DNA of 16,384 nucleotides from the IMG/VR virus record IMGVR_UViG_2563367003_000001; one strand, written 5' to 3'. The notes beneath the pieces were generated by a model that worked only from the letters and a program-made list of their open reading frames with translations, was not told the origin of the DNA and searched no databases. Below are positions 1 to 13,703 of this stretch, piece after piece. Each line of letters opens with the position of its first letter. Position 1 is the first letter of the stretch. This DNA is from a virus. Lineage: Duplodnaviria > Heunggongvirae > Uroviricota > Caudoviricetes. A program made the position numbers and the translations under genes.

Positions 1-2160
<2,160 letters not shown>

Positions 2161-2236
2161 ACATGAGTCAATGGTGTAAGTATGTGAATGATATAAGAGG
2201 AAAAATAGAGCATAATCTCTACCTGAATGGCTATGT

Positions 2237-2272
2237 TGCAATACACACTGCAATACACACTGCAATACACAG
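2237..2272 (+). repeat. Three tandem 12-bp direct repeats TGCAATACACAC/G (candidate integrase arm-type sites or operator)
   Basis: TGCAATACACAC TGCAATACACAC TGCAATACACAG; related copies near the other end of the element (13310..13350). Confidence 0.8.
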
Positions 2273-2331
2273 AAATCAATGTACAAACCATTCAATTATC
2301 AACCCACAAATGAAGTGAATAAAGATTTGTT

Positions 2332-3093
2332 ATGAATATTATAGATACCCTTCAAAATGACCTAGAGCGCGCAGTAGCGCTTCAAAACATACTAATTGCA
2401 AGAGCTACAGGAGCCCAGGATGAAGCTAATAATGATTATTTGCTTCTAAGAACATATTTCTTACAAAATCCTCCTTTACATCAGCTATTACCAGAGTTTG
2501 TGAGAACTAATCGCTCACTAAAAGAATTTTGGGGATTTATAAAAAAGACTGAAAAGTATGCCCCCCGGAGAGATTTGATTTATAAGGCATTTCAGCCGAT
2601 GCTGGATTATCTAGAAGGGAAAAATAAAGCTCCAGCGGATGAAGACATATCTGATGTATTAAGAAAGTTTAACGAGGATGGAGTCCACGCCGTTTGGATA
2701 AAAGCACTTGAACGGCGCCATACAGATCCGGATGGTGCGATAACCTCCGCAAGAACACTTCTTGAAACAGTTTGCAAACACATTCTTGATGATATGGGCA
2801 TTCAGTATAATAATAAAAATATTGAAATGTCAGAGCTTTATAAAACTCTTTCAAAAGAACTTAACCTATCTGCCGACCAACATACTGAAAATATCTTCAA
2901 ACAAATTCTCGGCGGTTGTTCTGCAGTTGTAAATGGGTTAGGTACTCTTCGTAATAAACTCGGTGATGCACATGGAACGAACAGCTCATCAATTAAGCCA
3001 TCCCCAAGGCATGCCGAACTTGCAGTAAATTTATCAGGCTCAATGGCTCTTTTTTTAATTAACACTTGGTTAAACCTTAAAGATGGGAAATAA
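2332..3093 (+). CDS. HEPN-domain protein with Rx6H motif (Abi_C / abortive-infection-like), 253 aa
   Basis: C-terminal motif GTLRNKLGDAHG fits the HEPN R-x(4-6)-H signature seen in AbiJ/AbiU2/Abi_C proteins. AT-rich gene in the cargo position of the element. Family assignment from motif memory only. Confidence 0.6.
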   Translation: MNIIDTLQNDLERAVALQNILIARATGAQDEANNDYLLLRTYFLQNPPLHQLLPEFVRTNRSLKEFWGFIKKTEKYAPRRDLIYKAFQPMLDYLEGKNKAPADEDISDVLRKFNEDGVHAVWIKALERRHTDPDGAITSARTLLETVCKHILDDMGIQYNNKNIEMSELYKTLSKELNLSADQHTENIFKQILGGCSAVVNGLGTLRNKLGDAHGTNSSSIKPSPRHAELAVNLSGSMALFLINTWLNLKDGK

Positions 3094-3179
3094 CGTATAA
3101 TGAAGTAACACGAGCAATTAGTTAATCATTATACTCAGTCGATTAATTTATTTTGACGACTCGTAAGCAATTTTTCGAT

Positions 3180-3199
3180 GAGGGCGGAACTCCGCCCTC
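3180..3199. repeat. Perfect palindrome GAGGGCGGA-ac-TCCGCCCTC in a 360-bp non-coding spacer
   Basis: 9-bp arms, 2-nt spacer; no flanking U-tract on either strand, so not a canonical intrinsic terminator. Confidence 0.4.
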
Positions 3200-3495
3200 G
3201 GTGCTAACCTATGAGAAACGATATCTCTTCCACCGATACCATAATATTAGGTATCGCGAAGAAGCCCCAAAATCAGTGTGTTGCTTTTACTACCCAAACT
3301 ACCTGTAGTTTCATAGTTGAGTTGCAAATTTGCAATTCGACTACCAGCCACAAGGCGTAAATTTGCGTCGTCAGGAATATCAACGAGTTAGCATATGAAT
3401 AGGCCAAACGGCCACAAACCTCACTTTTGAGGCTTGCTCATTTATTAGCTGGCTATGGTAAGGCCCATTTTGGGGCCGTCGAGAAAATCAAAGAG

Positions 3496-3771
3496 TTATC
3501 GCCGCAGTCTGTCAGGCTTCTTCCACTGGTACGATGCAACGTTCTGGCGTTGTCCCTGCCTCCGCCTAGCTGCCAGTATAGCCAGCACTTTGGTGCGGAT
3601 GACTAAGCAATCCTGTCCGTTCAGTTCTATACCGTCACGCCACATAACCTCAGCAACCACACGAGCGTAATTTTCAGCGGTGACACTGCCCGGCTGCGTG
3701 GCCTGTTCGTCATGCTGGTGGCTGACTCCACCAGCATAGCAGATTACTTTCAGTAGTTCGGATTCAGTCAT
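3496..3771 (-). CDS. Hypothetical protein (91 aa), last gene of the packaging operon downstream of terS
   Basis: ORF 12 bp after the Nu1-like stop, same strand. No recognised similarity; an overlapping plus-strand ORF 3455..3670 is less protein-like. Confidence 0.4.
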   Translation of the reverse strand: MTESELLKVICYAGGVSHQHDEQATQPGSVTAENYARVVAEVMWRDGIELNGQDCLVIRTKVLAILAARRRQGQRQNVASYQWKKPDRLRR

Positions 3772-3782
3772 AGCGTACTACG

Positions 3783-4310
3783 TTACTTATCCTTATTCAG
3801 CTGCAACTTATCCGGTACGTTTCCTGTACTTTCCATCAGATAATCAGCCAGTATCTGTGGGAGGTTGTCAGCAACGCCGGCACTGGCATTACAGGCTTTA
3901 GCCACTTCCTTTTTAAGTCCATCCAGCATAGCCGGAGTCATCTGTGGGAAGCGCCTTTGCATGGTAAGCGGCAGGCTGTCCATGATAGATGAAATCTGAC
4001 TCGCCAGTTTGGAAAGAACATACATACAAAACTCTGTATCAATAACGTCGCCGCGTTCGCGCTCGTTTTTAAGCTCCTGCGCCTCTGCCTGTGCTGTCAG
4101 TAATCTGATCCTGACGCGTAAAAGTTCATCGTCATCAATATCGCCCGTTTCGTTTGTAATCTGGCTGATTGCATTGTTAACCCGATTATCTATTACACTG
4201 GCAACATCATAGAACGCCTCACGGCCCTTACGCTCGACGGGAATCACTCCCCACTTATCGAACGCAGTGGCGCTTACACGGCAACTTTTTGCCATGTTTT
4301 TTTTGTTCAT
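3783..4310 (-). CDS. Small terminase subunit, lambda Nu1-like (satellite-encoded TerS)
   Basis: Middle and C-terminal regions align with lambda Nu1 from memory (AQAEAQELKNERERGDVIDTEFCMYVLSKLASQISSIMDSLPLTMQRRFPQ versus AQADAQELKNARDSAEVVETAFCTFVLSRIAGEIASILDGLPLSVQRRFPE). Sits ~150 bp downstream of the cos-like site, as in lambda. Start chosen at MNKKNMAK; ORF track extends to 4334. Confidence 0.8.
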   Translation of the reverse strand: MNKKNMAKSCRVSATAFDKWGVIPVERKGREAFYDVASVIDNRVNNAISQITNETGDIDDDELLRVRIRLLTAQAEAQELKNERERGDVIDTEFCMYVLSKLASQISSIMDSLPLTMQRRFPQMTPAMLDGLKKEVAKACNASAGVADNLPQILADYLMESTGNVPDKLQLNKDK

Positions 4311-4399
4311 CAGGTGTAATTTCATTGATACCACAACTTAATTACTGTTTCAGGTTGGTGTATTGATTGTATTTTTCTCTTATTATTCATACAGATATA

Positions 4400-4500
4400 G
4401 CGAACAACAAAACCACCACCAGTCCCCTTAAAATGCTCATAAATAGAGAAAACCCGCGCGCCTGACGCCCCGTAGCCTGTCAGATCGCCGGAAAGGACCC
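4400..4500 (-). other. Lambda-like cos site (cosQ-side flank, cosN-equivalent at 4459..4470, start of cosB)
   Basis: Minus strand reads GGGTCCTTTCCGGCGATCTGACAGGCTACG GGGCGTCAGGCG CGCGGGTTTTCTCTATTTATGAGCATTTT. Recalled lambda sequence is ...GGGTCCTTTCCGGTGATCCGACAGGTTACG GGGCGGCGACCT CGCGGGTTTTCGCTATTTATGAAAATTTT. Flanks are near-identical; the central 12-mer differs at ~5 positions. Confidence 0.7.
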
Positions 4501-4526
4501 GCCAGCCAGAGCGGGCCCTAATTTCA

Positions 4527-4910
4527 TCAACCAATCAGCTTATAGCGACCATCCCGTGCATTGCGGCGTACACGCTCAATCTTGAGGCATAGCGCCGCAT
4601 CTGGCTTTTTTGGGACAGGTACGCGGCAATATTCAGAAGCGCGAGGAATATTATTTATCCAGTCGATCACTTCACTTAAATACCAGGCCTTACGCCCTTC
4701 CGTAACCTGCACACGCTCCGGGAACTCTCCACTAGCCTCAAGGTTTAGCAGTGTACGCCGACTCAGGGTTGTAATTTCCATCACCTGATTCATATCAACA
4801 AGGCGCTCGCTTAAACACATTTTGTCAGCGATAGCTTTTAATTCCTCTACAGCTGGATTCGGGTACATCATTTCGGCAATTGGCTTAAGGTCATTGTAAT
4901 CATTCTGCAT
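4527..4910 (-). CDS. AlpA/MerR-like HTH DNA-binding protein (127 aa), between the decoration gene and cos
   Basis: MEITTLSRRTLLNLEASGEFPERVQVTEGRKAWYLSEVIDWINN fits the AlpA-family HTH pattern. RBS GGGGGA 5 nt upstream of ATG at 4910. Function (regulator versus packaging factor) unknown. Confidence 0.6.
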   Translation of the reverse strand: MQNDYNDLKPIAEMMYPNPAVEELKAIADKMCLSERLVDMNQVMEITTLSRRTLLNLEASGEFPERVQVTEGRKAWYLSEVIDWINNIPRASEYCRVPVPKKPDAALCLKIERVRRNARDGRYKLIG

Positions 4911-4921
4911 TGTATCCCCCT

Positions 4922-5263
4922 TTACACACGAGCCAGCGGCTGAACAGAAATACCTGAGCCAACAAACGCGGCAACCTTTGCCGACAGTTCTCTTACAGAC
5001 TCAGGCCAGTTCAGAGCATCAACATTTAAAACACCTGTCTTATAAACCTGTGCCTGTGTTTTTTTCGCTGTGTCGATTTGTACAGCGGAAACATAAACCG
5101 CTTTGCCTGCGCTCGTTCCATCCCATACCACTAGCGCACCAGTTGCATCTTCCTGCATCAGTGGCGTAAACGCAGGTATTACCCCTTTATTGGCTGAAAA
5201 TATCCCCAGCGTAGTAACCAGTGCTTCAGTGCCAGACATGAGTTCAGTGTAATGAGTAGCCAT
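4922..5263 (-). CDS. Head decoration protein, lambda gpD-like (satellite-encoded)
   Basis: 113 aa; AFTPLMQEDATGALVVWDGTSAGKAVYVSAV...QVYKTGVLNVDALNWPES...AFVGSGISV parallels lambda gpD ([31 protein letters not shown]...[18 protein letters not shown]...[10 protein letters not shown]). Strong RBS AAGGGGGAG. Confidence 0.8.
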   Translation of the reverse strand: MATHYTELMSGTEALVTTLGIFSANKGVIPAFTPLMQEDATGALVVWDGTSAGKAVYVSAVQIDTAKKTQAQVYKTGVLNVDALNWPESVRELSAKVAAFVGSGISVQPLARV

Positions 5264-5272
5264 TGCTCCCCC

Positions 5273-6313
5273 TTAGCCAATGCGAACGGTAACAAAACGA
5301 TTGATGCGGGCCGGTATTGGCTGTGGTGCTGAATGTGTCTGCACATATTCAATAGCCGGATCACCAGGCACAATATAGTTTTTCGGTGCAAGTTCGGCTT
5401 TAGTCAGCCCCATTCGGATTAGCTCCGGATCCTGAATACCGCCATAGGCGACAATCCCCTGAAGAGCCGTATTGCCAAGCACCATCAAATCAGGATCAAG
5501 GAAATGTTTTTCAGTTCCGTCCTCGTCGGTATAACGCCCGCTGTATACAACAATCGCAACATCGCCCATATACCCTTTAAAACTCACCGAATCACCAAGG
5601 TCTTTAAGGGCCGTTTCCAGTTCGGAATTAGAACCACGACGGGTATCCAGAGCCTCTTTTATCGCTCTGAATGAACGGTATTTCTTCCATACATTACCGC
5701 CCATAATGATGATATTAGTGACGCCCTCACTAAATTCTGCGTAGCTCTCAATATCATCATTTGGATCAAAAGTTTCTTTATCCTTACCTGACCACTCAGC
5801 ACCGCCAGACTGAGTGATGATATTTTGTGGTTTAATATTCCAGTCCAGCTCATAACGTTCAATACCATCGCCCTCAATGATATTTTTCCCCGTTGTGATT
5901 GCCTGAACGGCAAGCCATTCAATACGTGCACGAATAGCTTTAGCCTGATTTACAATCGCCTGTTTAACTTTAATATTACGCGCTCCAAAAGCATTGTATT
6001 GCTCAGGTGATACACCAGCAGGGCGCACAGCTAACTTATTTGGATCAATGCTGCTTTTCGGCTTCATATAGCCTGGACGAATTGTTTTTGATTCGTACCC
6101 TTCGTCACGTGAAACTTTACTACCCACCATAGGAGAACAAAACGCTGCAATTGGGATATTTGGATCGTCGATTGTATCAAGAATAATATCGCGCGATTCA
6201 AACATTACCGAGCGAGTAAAAAACAAACTGGTAAACAACGCATTTAGTTGTTTTTGTACATCTACAGCATTAACCACCTGTACAAGCTGGGTAGGCGAAT
6301 ATAAATCAACCAT
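5273..6313 (-). CDS. Major capsid protein, lambda gpE-family homolog (divergent, satellite-encoded)
   Basis: Shares blocks with lambda gpE: ITQSGGAEWSGKDKETFDPNDDIESYA, RRGSNSELETALKDLG, GDVAIVVYSG, GYMKPK. Start set at MVDLYSPTQ (RBS AAGAGG); ORF track extends upstream to 6487. Confidence 0.85.
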   Translation of the reverse strand: MVDLYSPTQLVQVVNAVDVQKQLNALFTSLFFTRSVMFESRDIILDTIDDPNIPIAAFCSPMVGSKVSRDEGYESKTIRPGYMKPKSSIDPNKLAVRPAGVSPEQYNAFGARNIKVKQAIVNQAKAIRARIEWLAVQAITTGKNIIEGDGIERYELDWNIKPQNIITQSGGAEWSGKDKETFDPNDDIESYAEFSEGVTNIIIMGGNVWKKYRSFRAIKEALDTRRGSNSELETALKDLGDSVSFKGYMGDVAIVVYSGRYTDEDGTEKHFLDPDLMVLGNTALQGIVAYGGIQDPELIRMGLTKAELAPKNYIVPGDPAIEYVQTHSAPQPIPARINRFVTVRIG

Positions 6314-6487
6314 ACGCATCCTCTTTGCATTCATTAAAAATAATTGTGGATATATGCTATCACCGATATTTGTCATGCGAATACATGCAACCGAGTGCAA
6401 TGTTGTATAAAGTTTTGGGATGACAACTTCAGCACGGATAATTAGTGTTAATATCTTCACTCCCTTTGGTCTGGATTTATGTAGCAT

Positions 6488-6521
6488 GCCGGAAAATTTA
6501 TTTTTTTTCCGGCCTTTTTTA
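6488..6521 (+). terminator. GC-stem hairpin with T-tract (plus-strand orientation) between ssb and the capsid gene
   Basis: GCCGGAAAA-tttatttt-TTTTCCGGC followed by CTTTTTTA on the plus strand; on the minus strand the hairpin is not followed by a U-run. Confidence 0.4.
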
Positions 6522-6531
6522 TTGGCAATAT

Positions 6532-6981
6532 TTAAAACGGAATATCATCTCCCCATTGCTCATTATCTCCCACTGGTGGATGGCTTCCTTGCTGATCTGC
6601 CTGTTGTTTTGCTCTGTTCAGTGCGTCAGTAGCCTGACCCTGTTGATCTTTTTTGCCGCCCGGTCGCACCGTTCGCGCACTGATTACGCTGTCTGCGATA
6701 ACCTGCCAGCCCTGCCGCGTTTCACCGTTCTGTCCAGTCCACTGGCTCACCTGCATATTACCCGCCACGCTCAGGAGTTCGCCTTTGTGATGCTTTGCCA
6801 GCGTGTCGGCTTGTCTGCCAAACGCCAGCACAGATAACCACATCGTCGCCGTTCCGTCATCTGCCTGGCTGCATGGCAAAGATACCGCCATCCGTGCCAG
6901 TGTCATGGGTGTTCCCTTGCTGGTATGTTTTACCTGTGGGTCGTCCACCAGCCGCCCGTAAGCTGCTATTTGCGCCGTCAT
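6532..6981 (-). CDS. ssb: Single-stranded DNA-binding protein (SSB) with C-terminal acidic tip ...WGDDIPF
   Basis: 149 aa; OB-fold-like N-terminus (AYGRLVDDPQ...), Gln/Gly-rich linker, and the DDIPF tail characteristic of bacterial/phage SSBs (E. coli SSB ends DDDIPF). Confidence 0.8.
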   Translation of the reverse strand: MTAQIAAYGRLVDDPQVKHTSKGTPMTLARMAVSLPCSQADDGTATMWLSVLAFGRQADTLAKHHKGELLSVAGNMQVSQWTGQNGETRQGWQVIADSVISARTVRPGGKKDQQGQATDALNRAKQQADQQGSHPPVGDNEQWGDDIPF

Positions 6982-6992
6982 GCTGCCTGCTC

Positions 6993-7235
6993 TCAGGACT
7001 TAATATTGATGGTTGTCACTTCCTCCGCTTCGGCAATCTCCCGTTCGGTCAGCGTGGCAAAGTTTGCAGCCGCCGTTGTCATGAATGCGCTTATCAGTTC
7101 GGGATGTGCTTTCGCGTATCCTTCCCCGGCGTTGCGGTCTATTGCCTTAATCGCCACCCTTAGCCAGTGTTCAGCCATATCAAGGGCGCGGTAATGTGGC
7201 TTTATATGTTTGTTCAGTTTTCCTGATGTGTGCAT
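6993..7235 (-). CDS. Hypothetical protein (80 aa) immediately downstream of the iteron origin
   Basis: ORF with GAGGGGG RBS ~10 nt upstream; no recognised domain. Confidence 0.45.
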   Translation of the reverse strand: MHTSGKLNKHIKPHYRALDMAEHWLRVAIKAIDRNAGEGYAKAHPELISAFMTTAAANFATLTEREIAEAEEVTTINIKS

Positions 7236-7280
7236 TTTTATTTTTACCCCCTCGTTTAAAAAGTTTTTTGTGCACCACCA

Positions 7281-7510
7281 CCTTGTCTACCTTGTCTACC
7301 TGATTAGTTATCAGGCCAGTAATGGCGCGGGTTTCAGGGAGGTAGACAGCCCCAAATAGCTGTCTACCTCATCTCTACCCGTCTCCTTACCTGTCTACAA
7401 AAATGGGTAGATAAGGTAGATAACAGGTAGACAGTGAAAAATAGTTATCTACCTGCATTAATACATTGAAATAAAAGTATTTTATTTCAGTCAGGTAGAC
7501 AAGGTAGATA
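7281..7510. repeat. Replication origin: iteron array (>=11 copies of GGTAGAYA/TRTCTACC in both orientations) plus AT-rich segment
   Basis: CTTGTCTACCTTGTCTACC (7282..7300), GGTAGACAG (7341), TGTCTACC (7361), CTGTCTAC (7391), GGTAGATAAGGTAGATAACAGGTAGACAG (7407..7434), TATCTACC (7447), GGTAGACAAGGTAGATAAC (7493..7511); AT-rich 7457..7490. Lies directly 3' of the helicase gene. Confidence 0.8.
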
Positions 7511-7524
7511 ACCATTGCCATTTT

Positions 7525-9276
7525 TTATAAAAACGCATCGCAATCATCAGTAGTCGTTGCGTTGGTCTGCGTGACTCCCTTAACTTTTCGCGTAATATAT
7601 TCATATCCGTAAACTTTCGCCGCTGACCTCATAGCCTTTCCGAACTCATTCACGCTCAAACATTTCCCCTTTCCTGTATATGCCATGAAGGCCATATAGA
7701 CACGGTAAAGGCTGTTTCTGGTCGTGTACTTCACGGTGTCACCACCACCGCCCATCATTAGCCCACGAGCTTCCTCCAGAAACTCCAGCGCCGCGCAAAG
7801 CTCAACAACCGGATCCGTTTGCTGCTTTATTGCCAGAGCTTCATCACCGTCACGCTGTTCCAGTAATAAAGCCCGTGCCTTTTCAGGGTCAGCAAAATTA
7901 GCCAGCAAGCGGCGGATAATTACGGGGATTTCTGCCGCTATCTTTTCCGGTAATTCCTTGTCTTTTTCGTCCTCCCTTACAATGTTGTCGAACCGGAAAA
8001 TCACCCGACGGCGTGACACACCTCCGGCCCGTTCGGTAAAGATCATCGGGTCGTTATTGGTTGCCAGTACCACCGCCCTTATTATCGTCGTGAATCGCTT
8101 CTCATATTTCGGGTTAATTTCAACGGGATCGCCTCCCGTGATTTTCTTGATGCCCGTGCCTTCCCCCGTATATTTCGGCTGATCGGCAAGGACGATAAGA
8201 CGACTCCCGACAACCTGCGCACGCCCTCCTGCATCATCGAGTGATGTCATCTCTGCGCTTACGGTGTTCTGTTTGCCAGCAAGCAGGGTGGCAATATGGG
8301 TAAATGTACTCTTACCGCTTCCCCCGTCTCCGGTGGCCTCAATGAACATCTGCCAGTCGTACCGGTTCGCCATAATCATGTACAGCGCGGCACATATACG
8401 CATCATCTTGCGCGGGTCTTTTCCGGCTGCGTGCTCAAGCCATTTATGAAAGTTTGGCGCGTTATCGCGGATGTTCTCCCCTGGTGCTGGTGGCGTGTAC
8501 TCAATGCCGTTGTGCGTGGTGATCCAGTTCTCCGGCGTGTGCGGGGAAAATTCCCCCGTTTTCAGGTCAAGCGCACCATTGGCGAACGGCAGCAAATCGC
8601 CGGACGGCTCGCCCATTGGTTCGGCAATAACTTTTAACGCTTCAACGGCGTTATTGATCACGCGTTTGCTGAAAGTGGCCCTGTGCTCTGAATAGATCGC
8701 CACCATTTCGCGGCTCAGCTCCATTGTGCTGATCGGACACCATACCCCGCCGCGCCATACGTGAACGATTTCACTTTCCGGATGCACACAAACGCCATCA
8801 AAGCGCTCGGCAAGCAGCTGCGCGCGCTCACTGTCTGCCATCTGTGAAAGTTGCGCCTTTTGCTTCGTCGGAAGATTAAGCACCAGGCTTTCCCCACGCT
8901 CGCATTCCTCTTTGAGTCGCGGCAACTGGTCGGATAAATCCACTGGGCTGGTGTCAGTAATCCCCGCGTATTCGTGTACGGTCTTCACTCCAGCCACAGC
9001 CAGTAACGTAACAATCTGCGTCATGCTGTGCTCTGTGATATGTCCTGCGCGGTAAACACGCACACACTGACGATCTTCATCAATGATCCGGTAATCGGTG
9101 ATGTTTTTCAGTTGCTCATCAGCCAACACGACAGGCGGCACATCGTCGGCGGCAATATGTTTACCCGCCCATTCCTGCCACTCTTTCGCATGGCTCCACG
9201 CATCACTACCTGCAAAGATGATTATCTCTGTCAGTCTGTCGCGTGGCTGTTTTTTTAAGTTCGGTGCCAGTTTCAT
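7525..9276 (-). CDS. Replication initiator: SF3 helicase of the D5 / P4-alpha family (primase-helicase-like), 583 aa
   Basis: Walker A GDGGSGKST and surrounding D5_N/P4-alpha C-terminal-like sequence; followed by the iteron origin. The N-terminal ~250 aa may be a primase-like domain (not verified). Confidence 0.75.
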   Translation of the reverse strand: MKLAPNLKKQPRDRLTEIIIFAGSDAWSHAKEWQEWAGKHIAADDVPPVVLADEQLKNITDYRIIDEDRQCVRVYRAGHITEHSMTQIVTLLAVAGVKTVHEYAGITDTSPVDLSDQLPRLKEECERGESLVLNLPTKQKAQLSQMADSERAQLLAERFDGVCVHPESEIVHVWRGGVWCPISTMELSREMVAIYSEHRATFSKRVINNAVEALKVIAEPMGEPSGDLLPFANGALDLKTGEFSPHTPENWITTHNGIEYTPPAPGENIRDNAPNFHKWLEHAAGKDPRKMMRICAALYMIMANRYDWQMFIEATGDGGSGKSTFTHIATLLAGKQNTVSAEMTSLDDAGGRAQVVGSRLIVLADQPKYTGEGTGIKKITGGDPVEINPKYEKRFTTIIRAVVLATNNDPMIFTERAGGVSRRRVIFRFDNIVREDEKDKELPEKIAAEIPVIIRRLLANFADPEKARALLLEQRDGDEALAIKQQTDPVVELCAALEFLEEARGLMMGGGGDTVKYTTRNSLYRVYMAFMAYTGKGKCLSVNEFGKAMRSAAKVYGYEYITRKVKGVTQTNATTTDDCDAFL

Positions 9277-9572
9277 TTTTTGCCCCTGAATGCGTTAATC
9301 ATGCTTTTCATTTTCTGGATGTTTCCCCGCGCTTTTTCCCTGCTGATGGGCTTACTGCGGGGTGCGGCATATACCAGGGAAAAATCACGCCGGAACTGAT
9401 AAACAGGCATCACGCAGTCATAGCTATACCCCTCACGACGGTAAGTGATGCGCCGTTCTGCCACGCCTTTAATCGTTACCGTGCCGCCGTATTTATCGCG
9501 GTAAATATCGCCGTTCATAAATTCAGGCCGAGCGGGGCCGCTGGCAATAAAGCCAGAATTTTTCATTTCCAT
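9273..9572 (-). CDS. Hypothetical protein (99 aa), translationally coupled to the helicase gene (ATGA overlap)
   Basis: ORF in operon context; no recognised motif. Confidence 0.45.
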   Translation of the reverse strand: MEMKNSGFIASGPARPEFMNGDIYRDKYGGTVTIKGVAERRITYRREGYSYDCVMPVYQFRRDFSLVYAAPRSKPISREKARGNIQKMKSMINAFRGKK

Positions 9573-9589
9573 ATTATTTATTCCTCGAC

Positions 9590-9811
9590 TTAACTCGACT
9601 TATTTGATAGCAGGGCACTATTTATTGCGTCATTGAGTTTTTCTGCTGCTTCATCAATAAGTGACAACAGGCCATAAGCAATATTTGCATCTTCATTGTC
9701 ATTTATGCAATCAAGCCACATATTTAATATTGCTTTTGCTGAATTATTTAAAGTTAATGAACTTTCTGCACATGCTAACAATTTAAAAAAGACTTCCCGT
9801 TCTGTATTCAT
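9590..9811 (-). CDS. Hypothetical protein (73 aa), AT-rich
   Basis: ORF in operon context; composition differs from neighbours. Confidence 0.4.
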   Translation of the reverse strand: MNTEREVFFKLLACAESSLTLNNSAKAILNMWLDCINDNEDANIAYGLLSLIDEAAEKLNDAINSALLSNKSS

Positions 9812-10003
9812 TTAATCCCCCACCAGCTTACTTTCTTCCTCAATCAAAAAACTAGCGACACTTCCCGAAAGACGCGCCAGTAGGCTCGCCAGTGCGGATA
9901 TATCAGCATCTGTAATTTTGTTCGGGTATACCTCAAGAAGGCGGCAAATAATTTCTGTCTGGTGCGCACGTTCAGCGGCTTCGTGTAATGTGATTTCCTG
10001 CAT
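9812..10003 (-). CDS. Hypothetical protein (63 aa)
   Basis: ORF abutting the next gene with no spacer (stop/start coupling). Confidence 0.4.
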   Translation of the reverse strand: MQEITLHEAAERAHQTEIICRLLEVYPNKITDADISALASLLARLSGSVASFLIEEESKLVGD

Positions 10004-10188
10004 TAATGCACCTCTTTTAATTCATACACTGCTGAAATAATGACTTGTGATAAGCCATATTCTGATGATTCGCTTCTCACCGCAGCAATAGCCGTCTGAA
10101 CATTAACAGCCTTCACATTCTGAGCGATACCAATTGTGTGGCCTATTGGGTTAACAGCTCGGGCAAATACACGGAAGGTTTTAAGCAT
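10003..10188 (-). CDS. Hypothetical protein (61 aa)
   Basis: Start ATG overlaps the stop of the upstream 65-aa ORF (ATGCTTAA). Confidence 0.4.
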   Translation of the reverse strand: MLKTFRVFARAVNPIGHTIGIAQNVKAVNVQTAIAAVRSESSEYGLSQVIISAVYELKEVH

Positions 10189-10378
10189 GACTCACTCCCT
10201 GGCGGATTTTTGCAGCGAATACAGCAACACAACCGGACGGGCAACGGCTACGCGCTTCGCGTTCCGTCCAGGCGGTTACGTGGATGATTTGAGATTCTCC
10301 GGCACTCAGTGCCAGAAAACGCCACACAAAGGCCGTTTGTGTGTGTACAAGGTGTGGTATATGATTTACAGCAACCAT
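10181..10378 (-). CDS. Hypothetical protein (65 aa), first gene of the leftward operon
   Basis: Strong RBS AGGAGCCGTT-ATG. It is the 3' part of the 243-aa ORF 10181..10912 in the track; only the portion downstream of this RBS is considered real. Confidence 0.5.
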   Translation of the reverse strand: MVAVNHIPHLVHTQTAFVWRFLALSAGESQIIHVTAWTEREARSRCPSGCVAVFAAKIRQGVSHA

Positions 10379-10390
10379 AACGGCTCCTAG

Positions 10391-10568
10391 TTTACGTTGT
10401 TGGTTAGACGCCCCGTATGTGTTCCCAGCACTGCGGGGCGTTGCTCTTTGTATTTCAACAATTCTTTCGGTGTGTTTCATGTTATGAGCGCATGAAACAC
10501 ACGTCAAGGCTTTTTGTATTTCTTTTTTTGTGTATACTGAAACACACCGATGATTAGGAGTTTCAGAA
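10391..10568. promoter_or_regulatory. Divergent promoter/operator region between the leftward operon and the rightward RHH gene
   Basis: Inverted repeat GACGCCCCG...CGGGGCGT (10408..10440); palindrome TGTGTTTCATG...CATGAAACACA (10472..10500); second direct copy TGAAACACACC (10539..10549); -10-like TATACT (10531..10536); RBS AGGAG before ATG at 10569. Confidence 0.55.
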
Positions 10569-10874
10569 ATGGCAACGGCTAACAAAAACGCAAAATCACA
10601 ACTGACAACTGTCAGAGTCCCACTAGATGTTATGCAAGGGATGGAATCCGTTAAGCTGGACGGTGAAAGCAATGCCGGATTTATCGTAACCGCCATGCGC
10701 GGTGAAATCGCCCGCCGCCAGGCAGAAGGAAGCGGAGAAAATCCCCTCGTGTCTTCACTGGATGCCTTAGCTAAGGTCGAACAAATCGGCATCAAGGCAG
10801 CGGAGGAAATCGGGCAACTCGTAGCCGTCGCTCGTGAAGAACTCCAGCGGCGTAAAGCCAAAGAATCTGAATAA
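10569..10874 (+). CDS. Putative ribbon-helix-helix-type transcriptional regulator (101 aa)
   Basis: N-terminal beta-strand/helix pattern (TTVRVPLDVMQGMESVKLD...NAGFIVTAMRGEIARR) plus coiled C-terminus. AGGAG RBS. Divergent from the replication operon. Fold assignment is inference. Confidence 0.5.
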   Translation: MATANKNAKSQLTTVRVPLDVMQGMESVKLDGESNAGFIVTAMRGEIARRQAEGSGENPLVSSLDALAKVEQIGIKAAEEIGQLVAVAREELQRRKAKESE

Positions 10875-11224
10875 TTAGTATCAGCGCCGTGATGTGAGTA
10901 ACTACGGCGCATTGCTATGTAAATACTGGCAATAAACAGAAAAGGTAGTTCTACTCCGAATAATTTTATCTGACACTACTCCTGAACTAACATGCGCTTA
11001 TCTTACAGGATATAAATATAAATCCATAAAATCACGATTAAATAAAGTCGCTCCAAACATAAACCACACCCAACGCTTAACAAGATAGCAACAAACAGGT
11101 AAATAACTTGCAGAAATATTTATCGCAAGGATTATCATTATTAATGACAAATCACTTTACCAAGTCATTCCCCTCTCTTATCATAAAGAGAAAGTAATAA
11201 ATAAGTTAAGGGAGTTAGAATGCT

Positions 11225-11761
11225 ATGAATCTAAAAAAAATAGCCACAAACACAAAAAACAAGATAACAGAAACATTTAATAAACTTATATTAGAGGCAT
11301 CTAAAACCCCCACACAAGATGAAATTAAAATACTTGAGAGAAGGAGTAAGAAGTTTAATTACTCCTTTTTCTCATACGCAGTCACAGGAGCTATAATAGT
11401 TTTTTGCTCTCAACCATTAATTAAATACGCAAACCCAATACTTATTTTATTGAGTGGTCTGTTACTGTCTATCATCATTATCATTCTCAGAATGATTTAT
11501 ATTTCACAAGCGAATGCATCATGGACAACCAAAAAACGCTCACATGTACTAGTTCATTTTCTTTCTGCATGTTTCATAGCATCAACATTGACGTTGCTAT
11601 ATCAGGCTTACGATAATAACATCACACACAAATTGTACTGTAAAAATATACAACAACTTATTGAAAAAAGGATAGAAACAGAAAAAAACATCAGCATATT
11701 CAGTGGGATGCAATGCACCCCGGTATATGATTACTCTTTATTTGGATTTAATCTCTTATAA
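11225..11761 (+). CDS. Small membrane protein (178 aa, ~3 predicted TM helices), very AT-rich cargo gene
   Basis: Hydrophobic segments FFSYAVTGAIIVFCSQPLI, ILILLSGLLLSIIIIILRMIYI, VLVHFLSACFIASTLTLLY. Strongly AT-rich versus the flanks. No recognised family. Confidence 0.55.
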   Translation: MNLKKIATNTKNKITETFNKLILEASKTPTQDEIKILERRSKKFNYSFFSYAVTGAIIVFCSQPLIKYANPILILLSGLLLSIIIIILRMIYISQANASWTTKKRSHVLVHFLSACFIASTLTLLYQAYDNNITHKLYCKNIQQLIEKRIETEKNISIFSGMQCTPVYDYSLFGFNLL

Positions 11762-11770
11762 AGAATGTTA

Positions 11771-11804
11771 TTACTGATTTGAGTACAAATTCTCAAATCA
11801 GTAA
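11771..11804. terminator. Bidirectional intrinsic terminator hairpin between convergent genes
   Basis: 13-bp perfect stem TTACTGATTTGAG / CTCAAATCAGTAA with 8-nt loop, A/T-rich flanks on both sides; lies between the plus-strand membrane-protein gene and the minus-strand alpA gene. Confidence 0.65.
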
Positions 11805-11830
11805 TTCATAATATTTTATTCTGAGATAAT

Positions 11831-12058
11831 TTAAACTACCCACTCACCTCGAATCCATGCCTGCACTTCTGAAAGACGATATGCAACAGCAGTGGAACCA
11901 ATCTTGATCCGCTTAGGAAATTTTCCTTCCTTCTCCAGCTTCCAGCGTGTGCTGTTCGCAAGAGTGGTTAGCTCCCGACATTCTTTCTCACGGATCATTC
12001 GGTCAATGTTAGGAATGTACTCCAGACCCTTTTTATCAACAATTGCCATTTTTTTCAT
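11831..12058 (-). CDS. alpA: AlpA-family HTH protein (excisionase/Vis-like regulator), 75 aa
   Basis: IREKECRELTTLANSTRWKLEKEGKFPKRIKIGSTAVAYRLSEVQAWI fits the AlpA pattern; immediately downstream of the integrase gene. Confidence 0.8.
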   Translation of the reverse strand: MKKMAIVDKKGLEYIPNIDRMIREKECRELTTLANSTRWKLEKEGKFPKRIKIGSTAVAYRLSEVQAWIRGEWVV

Positions 12059-12059
12059 G

Positions 12060-13295
12060 TTAACCAGCCTTTTGTTTGAGGATTGTCACTTTTGAATCAG
12101 CACCTGCGATGCTATTGAGATATGTAGTCCAGAGTTCCAGAGCATCCAGTTTTTTAGCCATAAACTTACTCCGGTTGTAAACACCTGCCACGCCAGGTAG
12201 CGCATGGCCTAACAGTTGTTCTACTACATAAAATTCAACACCGAGATCACTTAGATGAGTAGATAGCGTTCTTCTAAGGTCGTGTAGTGACCATTGTTTT
12301 TCATGGCCCAAACGTTTACCGATTTTCCCCCCAATCTTGCTTACGCTTTCTCTAATTCGCAGACTTCCCAGCACATAACCAGTATGTTTTGTCTCTTCGT
12401 GAACATCCGTTACCCACTGTCGTAGAATTTCAGGTACTGGTCTGACGATTTCAACACCAGTTTTTGAGTGATCTTTTGGTACAGTCCAAACCCAACTTTC
12501 GAGATCCCATTCGCTCCATTCTGATAATCGGGCTTCACTCATTCGACATCCAAATACTGTACAAAGCACAAACATTTTTCGCGTGTATTCAGACATTAGT
12601 TTTAAATCAGGCTCGACAAAAATTGCCTTCCAGAGCTGGCCGAGTTCGGCTTCATCCAGAACCCGATCCCGCTTACCTGCAATCTGCCCCACATCACTCA
12701 TGCGCAAATCCTTTAAAGCATCACACGTCGCGTACTGGCGTACCCGACAAAAACGAAGAGCTAATTTAGTGTCAGAAAAAACATACGCCGCCATAACTGG
12801 TGCATTACGTTTAATTCGGTCAAAACAGTCCAGCCATTCATATAGGTGAGTGTCATTTACGGGCAAATGACCGATATAGGGAAAGATATGCTTTCGAAAT
12901 CTGCCAAGCGTTACAGCATGAGTTTTACGACGCACCTTACAGTAATTTTCATACCAGTAATTTAGTGCATCCTCCACTGTAACCGGCTTTAAGCGTTCTT
13001 CAGCCTGAATCTTAATCTGGATACGCGGATCACGTTTGTCAGCCAACCAACCACGGCACTCGTCGCGCTTTTCCCTTGCCTGTTTGAGTGACATATCAGG
13101 ATATTTACCCAACGTTAGCCAGACCGGAGCAGCCCGGCCACCTGCTAACCTGTAGAAGAAAACAAAGCTCACAGCCCCTTTAGTACTCACACGAATAGAA
13201 AGCCCCTTTCCATCAGCAATGGTGATCTGCTTTTCTCTGGGTTTCCCCAGATATCCTTTAAGCGCTTTGTCGCTCAGTTTGTTCTCGCCAGCCAT
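12060..13295 (-). CDS. int: Tyrosine site-specific integrase, P4-type
   Basis: N-terminal arm-binding-like region (LSDKALKGYLGKPREKQITIADGKGLSIRVSTKGAVSFVFFYR), catalytic-box residues (HDLRRT, LLGHA...GVYNRS). Start set at MAGENKLSDK; ORF track extends to a GTG at 13346. Confidence 0.9.
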   Translation of the reverse strand: MAGENKLSDKALKGYLGKPREKQITIADGKGLSIRVSTKGAVSFVFFYRLAGGRAAPVWLTLGKYPDMSLKQAREKRDECRGWLADKRDPRIQIKIQAEERLKPVTVEDALNYWYENYCKVRRKTHAVTLGRFRKHIFPYIGHLPVNDTHLYEWLDCFDRIKRNAPVMAAYVFSDTKLALRFCRVRQYATCDALKDLRMSDVGQIAGKRDRVLDEAELGQLWKAIFVEPDLKLMSEYTRKMFVLCTVFGCRMSEARLSEWSEWDLESWVWTVPKDHSKTGVEIVRPVPEILRQWVTDVHEETKHTGYVLGSLRIRESVSKIGGKIGKRLGHEKQWSLHDLRRTLSTHLSDLGVEFYVVEQLLGHALPGVAGVYNRSKFMAKKLDALELWTTYLNSIAGADSKVTILKQKAG

Positions 13296-13309
13296 TTTTA
13301 GCCCCAAAA

Positions 13310-13350
13310 AGCAATACAAGCTGCAATACAGAGATGATTGCAACACACAG
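13310..13350 (+). repeat. Direct repeats related to TGCAATACA (AGCAATACA, TGCAATACA, TGCAACACA) upstream of int
   Basis: Same motif and orientation as the 3x12-bp array at 2237..2272 at the opposite end of the element. Confidence 0.7.
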
Positions 13351-13457
13351 ATAACGAGGAAAATTCAGTGAAAGCACCAGATAAACTTATTCTTTATTAT
13401 CAAAAGATTAAGTGTAAAAACCAGCAACTACACGAAAGCCTCAGAAAGCCATGCTAA

Positions 13458-13703
13458 GTGCTTCGGCTTGACATATCCCGGCGTAAATTCAGAGGTGGAG
13501 CCGCCACGGGAGCGGATAACCTCACCGGAAACAATCGGCGAAACGTACAGCGCCATGTTTACCAGCCCCGGAATTTGTGAGAGATAGACTTTCTCCGTGG
13601 TGAAGGGATAGCTCTCACGGAAAAAGAGACGCAGAAACAGCGGATCAAACTTAAATTTCTGCTCATTTGCCGCCAGCAGCTGGGCGGTTGTGTACATCGA
13701 CAT
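13458..13703 (-). pseudogene. E: Lambda-like major capsid protein E, N-terminal fragment (residues 1 to ~91), interrupted by the inserted element
   Basis: MSMYTTAQLLAANEQKFKFDPLFLRLFFRESYPFTTEKVYLSQIPGLVNMALYVSPIVSGEVIRSRGGSTSEFTPGYVKPKH matches the lambda gpE N-terminus; the frame then reads 9 unrelated codons (LAWLSEAFV) into the element and stops at 13428. Confidence 0.9.
13459..13468. repeat. Right junction core (attR-like): TGCTTCGGCT
   Basis: Identical to 2151..2160; lambda E sequence continues on the high-coordinate side. Confidence 0.7.

Follow-up and report, generated by a model that had tools for sequence, protein, structure and literature searches.

SadR of Staphylococcus aureus is an Abi_C-domain RNase encoded by a single gene (Nat Commun 2026, PMC13590631). 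It is for this protein that metal-independent RNase activity dependent on R and H has been shown, with loss of both RNase and defence activity in the R225A, N226A, and H232A variants (PMC13590631). A SadR escape mutant maps to the phage single-strand annealing protein (SSAP; PMC13590631), as do escape mutants of Lactococcus lactis AbiJ (PMC13064643), an activator role for SSAP not being thereby shown in either system. AbiJ, also termed Abi-859 and represented as 'AbiJ' in PADLOC and DefenseFinder, has the HEPN plus variable N-terminal domain architecture set out by Anantharaman et al. 2013 (PMC3710099), and its mechanism is still unknown (PMC13064643). Taranis, an Abi_C cassette among the anti-phage systems reported from the V. 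cholerae superintegron, has been found near integrases in Klebsiella and Burkholderia, and the same report mentions Klebsiella PICIs with Abi_C and AbiJ_NTD proteins (bioRxiv 10.1101/2024.07.02.601686). HepS of the Gifsy-1 prophage is a 'HEPN solo' anticodon nuclease (Nature 2026, PMC13043305).

The carrier of the gene considered here also belongs to a satellite type that is already published: the 11capE helper-embedded PICI, with its 10-bp identity block, was described by Tommasini, Mageeney & Williams in 2023 (PMC10111431). Their report notes a 'doubled DNA motif' unique to HE-PICIs and does not discuss defence cargo, the word 'defense' occurring only in its reference list (PMC10111431). The window (the whole stretch of DNA analysed, 16,384 nucleotides) contains an element of this kind, and near one end of it lies a gene, abi, that in our judgement is likely to encode a stand-alone AbiJ/SadR-type abortive-infection RNase carried as phage-satellite cargo. 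The gene and the parts of its product are as follows.

2332..3093 including the stop, + strand: abi ORF, 253 aa, ATG start, Abi_C/AbiJ-like HEPN protein
2332..2616, + strand: N-terminal all-helical domain, aa 1-95, proposed sensor or regulator (AF2 model)
2638..3087, + strand: HEPN domain, aa ~103-252
2950..2973, + strand: catalytic motif R207-N208-K-L-G-D212-A-H214 (R-phi-x5-H, equivalent to Rx6H), from the sequence

Residues 204-215 of the product read GTLRNKLGDAHG, with R207 encoded by CGT at 2950-2952, H214 by CAT at 2971-2973, and N208 as the polar residue directly after the motif R. Because an Rx6H would commonly arise by chance, the weight of the family assignment rests on the profile match, which is far stronger than the bare motif. 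Pfam Abi_C (PF14355) aligns to aa 168-243 over profile positions 2-82 of 83 with a score of 83.3 bits (E=1.3e-23), against a gathering cut-off of 24 bits, and the PADLOC AbiJ model matches aa 129-243 at profile positions 162-274 of 281 (E=2.2e-21). Searching the PDB by sequence was uninformative (best E=1.1), and fold comparison was used for that reason; the protein has the all-alpha helical-bundle fold of HEPN domains. Membership of the HEPN/Abi_C group is shown by profile and fold together. The preliminary description had proposed such a protein from a 253-aa ORF carrying Rx6H, and both the coordinates of that ORF and its classification stand exactly as it gave them.

The protein family and its annotation were known before this analysis. 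The near-identical RefSeq entry WP_001021158.1 was already labelled 'abortive infection family protein', and phrog_23253, a PHROGs family without assigned function, covers the protein over its full length. In a collection clustered at 90% there are 5746 homologues at E<=1e-3, and at the 50% level 3440 cluster representatives; the best 120 of the 5746 are about 250 aa long, 57-100% identical, and nearly all full-length. The motif is conserved across 151 representatives at R207 (148), N208 (141), D212 (145), and H214 (146), and the catalytic residues are near-invariant among 44 closer homologues as well. Conservation extends to the first HEPN helix, where R128, D132, T138, E145, and K149 are each kept in 146-149 of the 151.

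SadR and the abi protein have in common an Abi_C domain and encoding by a single gene on a mobile element, and their motifs, RNEYGDAH and RNKLGDAH respectively, have the same spacing and agree at six of eight residues. They differ in host phylum and in location (SCCmec/rlmH locus versus PICI), and the likeness is drawn from the published motif and domain. RNase, anti-phage, and anti-plasmid activities have been measured for SadR, whereas the abi protein is known here from its sequence and a structural model. AbiJ likewise has a C-terminal HEPN domain and is a single-gene system, but it is plasmid-borne in a Gram-positive host, the N-terminal ~160 positions of its profile are unmatched, and abi has no match to AbiJ_NTD3/4/5; the abi protein is thus not a full-length homologue of L. 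lactis AbiJ. Taranis resembles abi in being a single-gene cassette with an Abi_C domain and, compared by its published description, differs in having an N-terminus said to be distantly related to AbiJ_NTD5, for which abi shows no match. HepS is more distant, being of another HEPN family with an Rx4H motif (R100-H105) and no reported Abi_C match; unlike for abi, its trigger (the tail-tip protein J) and tRNA target are known.

The AF2 model provides a view of the other half of the protein. Helices spanning residues 3-94 are predicted with pLDDT of about 85-95, and a linker modelled with low confidence (100-105) joins them to the HEPN module; confidence is lowest in the motif loop, where pLDDT falls below 50 at 209-215. 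The HEPN module occupies about 150 aa, which leaves a non-HEPN domain of ~95 aa. The preliminary description had assigned ~180 aa to a sensor or regulator outside the HEPN domain, a size that has to be corrected, since the HEPN domain at aa ~103-252 claims much of that length. No Pfam family, AbiJ_NTD3/4/5 included, matched the N-terminal 130 aa at E<=10, a negative that among AbiJ N-termini covers those three, AbiJ-NTD1 and NTD2 being absent from Pfam. The N-terminal 122 aa used as a query retrieved fragments of this one family and nothing else, a result uninformative on other partners of the domain. T26, Y36, R40, P54, W67, and R79 of this domain are kept within the subfamily. Relatives that align only at aa ~85-250 bear AbiJ_NTD3 or other N-termini, and some are extended at one end or the other by further modules, a DnaG-type zinc ribbon for example. 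Judged by its sequence architecture, a C-terminal AbiJ-clade HEPN domain with a swappable N-terminal module, the abi protein belongs to the AbiJ family in the sense of Anantharaman et al. 2013.

The DNA around the gene is compact, and its features are these.

2286..3178, + strand: cassette-specific DNA, approximate limits, comprising abi with ~45 nt upstream and ~85 nt downstream
2188..2216, + strand: weak sigma-70-like site upstream of abi, within the backbone arm (ATGATA-17-CATAAT, 9/12)
2237..2272, + strand: run of three 12-bp TGCAATACACAC repeats in tandem, probably arm-type sites of the integrase (TRF, repeat finder)
3181..3200: perfect hairpin with 8-bp stem, GAGGGCGG-AACT-CCGCCCTC, at the right edge of the cassette, no U-tract

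To the left of ~2285 the sequence is common to a sister element whose slot is empty (L021), and from 3180 rightwards it is 76-79% common to Abi-less PICIs at clpS and thiM. The intervening stretch of ~890 bp has abi as its only ORF. The gene has 38% GC against 49% for the window, and 500-nt windows spanning 2001-3500 have 39-43% GC against 52-57% in the flanks, which agrees with the AT-rich block noted earlier. No neighbouring gene is shared across the Klebsiella, Enterobacter, and metagenome contexts of homologues. Since the cassette-specific DNA has room for abi alone and no neighbour is conserved across contexts, the gene is best described as a single-gene system, as had been supposed when no partner was visible beside it.

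Candidate partners were considered in both protein and RNA form. Small ORFs of 79-135 aa that lie beside homologues are mutually unrelated and missing from the window, and were rejected as partners. There is no MNT antitoxin ORF in the cassette or in the homologue neighbourhoods examined, so the locus does not have the form of a HEPN-MNT pair. The only tandem array that TRF and the repeat finder detected near abi is the 3 x 12 bp TGCAATACACAC run, and Rfam gave nothing credible at E<=1 across 2100-3800 of the window; a type III organisation of AbiV/ToxIN kind is thus not seen. The TGCAATACACAC array itself was rejected as a type III antitoxin, the att-arm doublet being invariant in all slot variants and present without abi.

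Regulatory signals around the gene are faint. Promoter and terminator scans did not rise above shuffled expectation; the site at 2188..2216 is the sole candidate promoter and serves as a lead only, and translation would start from a weak ribosome-binding site (AAAGA before the ATG), a strong Shine-Dalgarno sequence not being found. The hairpin at 3181..3200 lies between abi and the convergent late genes of the satellite and is kept in Abi-less relatives; it was not called by the terminator scan. It was also rejected as the satellite's cosN, since a cos-like site lies at ~4430-4501 and the hairpin block is backbone. More generally, 3181-3420 is non-coding and rich in hairpins, with several perfect or near-perfect inverted repeats that are 76-79% kept in the Abi-less clpS and thiM PICIs, and Rfam has no match in this block.

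The carrier can be delimited from its att sites, integrase, and head genes.

2161..13458, - strand: host element, ~11.3-kb helper-embedded PICI of 11capE type (Pfam domains, annotated sister loci)
2151..2160: att core at the cargo end, a 10-bp identity block (TGCTTCGGCT) within capsid gene E of the helper
13459..13468: second att core copy, TGCTTCGGCT, at the integrase end
12060-13346, - strand: tyrosine integrase gene (Arm-DNA-bind_3 and Phage_integrase domains)
3783-4334: Nu1-like small terminase gene
4922-6487: satellite E-like and D-like head genes

On the - strand the element encodes the integrase, a D5-type primase, SSB, an E-like capsid protein, a D-like decoration protein, AlpA, and a Nu1-like TerS. 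Around it lies the head region of a lambda-like helper prophage, with portal, S49 protease, D, and then E, and joining of the flanks across att restores the lambda-type E protein, with ...YVKPKH continuing into EVNPQM.... The integrase and att region is 99.5% identical in nucleotide sequence to that of the prototype, E. coli NRG857c. By its E-gene site, 10-bp block, and HE-PICI-clade integrase, the carrier belongs to the capE site group of HE-PICIs. The NRG857c 11capE element shares with it the integrase, the backbone, and the 10-bp att block within capsid gene E, and differs in carrying a GmrSD_N plus HEPN (PD-T4-2-like) pair instead of abi and in lacking a Nu1-like gene. The abi gene occupies the end far from int, on the opposite strand, in the order att core, GCAATACA doublet, abi, and its position between att and the packaging genes is the one first proposed for it. 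The GCAATACA doublet is unchanged in all five slot variants, whatever the cargo, and the TGCAATACACAC/GCAATACA repeats are probably arm-type integrase sites.

Several further properties of the element and its helper were noted in passing. The satellite brings its own E-like capsid gene yet splits the helper's major capsid gene E. Its cos-like site, upstream of the Nu1-like gene, has flanks 83% like the helper cos region and a different 12-nt cosN core (CGCCTGACGCCC in the satellite versus AGGTCGCCGCCC in the helper), a divergence in sequence that suggests satellite-specific packaging recognition. A related PICI with the GCAATACA motif sits in the portal gene of its prophage rather than in E (L003, NZ_CP062871.1, ~4067-4874), which fits the late-gene tropism reported for the HE-PICI integrase clade. 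At 9-1261 of the window, on the - strand, is an IS3-family element (orfA 875-1222, orfB 9-1055), located by comparison with locus L001 just downstream of E within the helper FI gene; with FI thus interrupted, the helper in this strain may be defective. The abi-cassette matches in other E. coli are, among those listed, 1008 bp long against 1020 bp in the window, a 12-nt shortfall consistent with two TGCAATACACAC copies elsewhere and three here. Two copies are seen directly in L001.

Sister satellites show what else can occupy the abi position. A search of 5426 complete E. coli genomes found 174 with this integrase, and the slot holds Abi_C in 41 of these, a GmrSD_N plus RiboL-PSP-HEPN pair matching the PD-T4-2/NsnA models in 31 (the published prototype NRG857c among them), a 310-aa protein without assigned function (phrog_21267) in 17, and nothing in 5, tallies that leave ~80 of the 174 unclassified. 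Other contents, taken from sampled genomes, are a TIR protein, a DUF2971/PDC-S31 protein, and two small uncharacterised proteins. At least six non-abi contents are thus found in sisters with the same integrase and att, in keeping with the variable cargo position suggested in the preliminary description. The abi ORF is intact in 41/41 E. coli genomes among the matches listed, and over query positions 2161-3180 the cassettes of these 41 listed genomes are 98.5-98.7% identical in nucleotide sequence, the shortfall being largely the 12-nt length difference. Because the same slot holds unrelated defence-type genes, uncharacterised genes, or nothing, the interval between the att arm and the late genes qualifies as a satellite defence hotspot.

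The general notion of satellite defence hotspots is already published. Such hotspots are said to have been described in P4-like satellites and PICIs by Rousset et al. (2022) and by Fillol-Salom et al. (2022), and the present cargo slot behaves in the same way. A modest new point is that capsid-embedded PICIs have a rich defence hotspot at their att-proximal end, one that accepts at least seven alternative contents and offers a place to mine for new systems, for example among the 310-aa and small uncharacterised proteins.

The homologues outside this element extend the pattern. In K. oxytoca PICIs with a protease-capsid fusion, one of 70% identity occupies the att-distal end beside fis, and one of 68% identity takes the corresponding place in a capsid-forming PICI (cf-PICI) of Enterobacter at the fis site; these carriers are unrelated to the present element. 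The recurrence of this Abi_C subfamily at the ends of three different satellite architectures is likewise a modest new observation. A homologue of 86% identity adjoins a SIR2 gene on a K. pneumoniae island, one of 60% occupies a small islet in a chromosome, and the family occurs on 272 plasmid records. It is rare in true phages (4/50,697 phage records, all partial), a rarity that fits host- or satellite-side defence and is uninformative on function. On one Enterobacter-type cf-PICI contig (JGI 3300011242, 5408-7765) the integrase gene is followed directly by an abi homologue, the junction expected of an excised circular or tandem satellite.

Anti-phage activity of abi is suggested by its family members AbiJ, SadR, and Taranis; by analogy with SadR it would act as an RNase and abort infection, and the analogy with L. 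lactis AbiJ and Taranis suggests a defence function in more general terms. Experimental work on the protein itself, or on relatives more than 50% identical to it, was looked for and not found. As other HEPN RNases do, the protein would build a composite active site from two paired HEPN domains. In the uninfected cell the N-domain, the oligomeric state, or both would keep this site closed, a form of control modelled on that of HepS (PMC13043305), and release would come from a product of an infecting phage other than the helper. The released enzyme would then cut cellular and phage RNA, so that translation stops and the infection is aborted, and the clonal population, and hence satellite and helper prophage, would be shielded from competing phages. 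SSAP as the trigger is a lead from the escape mutants of the relatives, though the N-domains differ among AbiJ, SadR, and abi; since the abi N-domain lacks an AbiJ_NTD match, the AbiJ/SadR trigger is not transferable to abi.

An abortive-infection gene carried by a helper-embedded satellite raises the question of how the satellite keeps it from killing the helper. One possibility for the helper's escape is silencing of the antisense abi by late read-through. In this arrangement, which we think unlikely though worth stating, the orientation of abi antisense to helper late transcription would be a cis-acting safety switch: on helper induction, late read-through of the satellite would collide head-on with abi and turn it off, sparing helper and satellite while defence stays on against superinfecting phages. 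In four of the six cargo types the orientation is antisense with respect to the late genes of satellite and helper, and because most other slot cargos share it the same proposal would extend to them. In a variant, the N-domain could sense an SSAP-type recombination protein that the helper lacks or masks.

The proposal that abi is a defence RNase aimed at competing phages has to be set against other uses of such a gene. The enzyme might instead be a weapon or brake of the satellite on its own helper, trimming helper or host transcripts at induction in favour of satellite packaging. Helper interference is common among satellites (reviewed in PMC10111431), and abi does lie inside a helper prophage, near satellite capsid, decoration, and Nu1-like genes and a variant cos. 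Yet sisters with this integrase and att site leave the slot empty or fill it with defence-type genes unrelated to abi, which makes abi dispensable for the satellite life cycle; with close homologues also found outside satellites, in chromosomal islands and on plasmids, and characterised family members targeting incoming phages and plasmids, a role against the helper seems quite unlikely. We hold it to be distinctly improbable that abi is a silent or decaying passenger, unexpressed or inactive in E. coli. The lack of a promoter above chance, the weak ribosome-binding site, the antisense orientation to helper late and satellite transcription, and the IS in gene FI of the helper in the window would all sit well with decay, but each of the 41 listed genomes has the ORF intact at near-identity, thousands of homologues keep the catalytic and structural residues, and the family has been recruited repeatedly to satellite ends.

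Stabilisation of the satellite by abi as an addiction-module toxin, with an antitoxin (a small protein, or an RNA as in AbiV) that has escaped recognition, is a reading with precedent: toxins of TA pairs are numerous among HEPN proteins (HepT/MntA), recent work has shown AbiV to belong to type III, with RNA as its antitoxin (PMC13064643), and what keeps SadR non-toxic remains unknown. It is nevertheless very unlikely here, given that homologue contexts hold no MNT or other conserved neighbour, that no tandem array occurs save the 12-bp att-arm motif, which is present without abi too, that 2100-3800 has no Rfam match, and that the cassette offers only ~45 nt of specific DNA upstream and ~85 nt downstream. 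SadR lowers plasmid transformation besides blocking phages (PMC13590631), and abi too could serve mainly to exclude plasmids or other mobile DNA, not phages. Such a barrier is compatible with anti-phage defence; as the main role it is very improbable for a gene whose carrier is a phage satellite and whose slot otherwise holds anti-phage-type genes.

As an abortive-infection RNase of AbiJ/SadR type, abi would add to the family a clean, minimal cassette from E. coli (~0.9 kb, one gene) in a genetically tractable host and on a defined carrier. The family's mechanism is only now emerging, SadR having been characterised in 2026 and AbiJ still awaiting explanation. A further variable zone lies at the integrase-proximal end of the satellite. 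There the window has, at 11225-11761 on the + strand, a gene of 30-36% GC for a 178-aa predicted membrane protein with no PADLOC match and, as its best Pfam hit, a sub-threshold DUF443 (E=0.0011). Sister elements bear SWIM and DUF2971 genes in its place, and this zone may be a second cargo slot.
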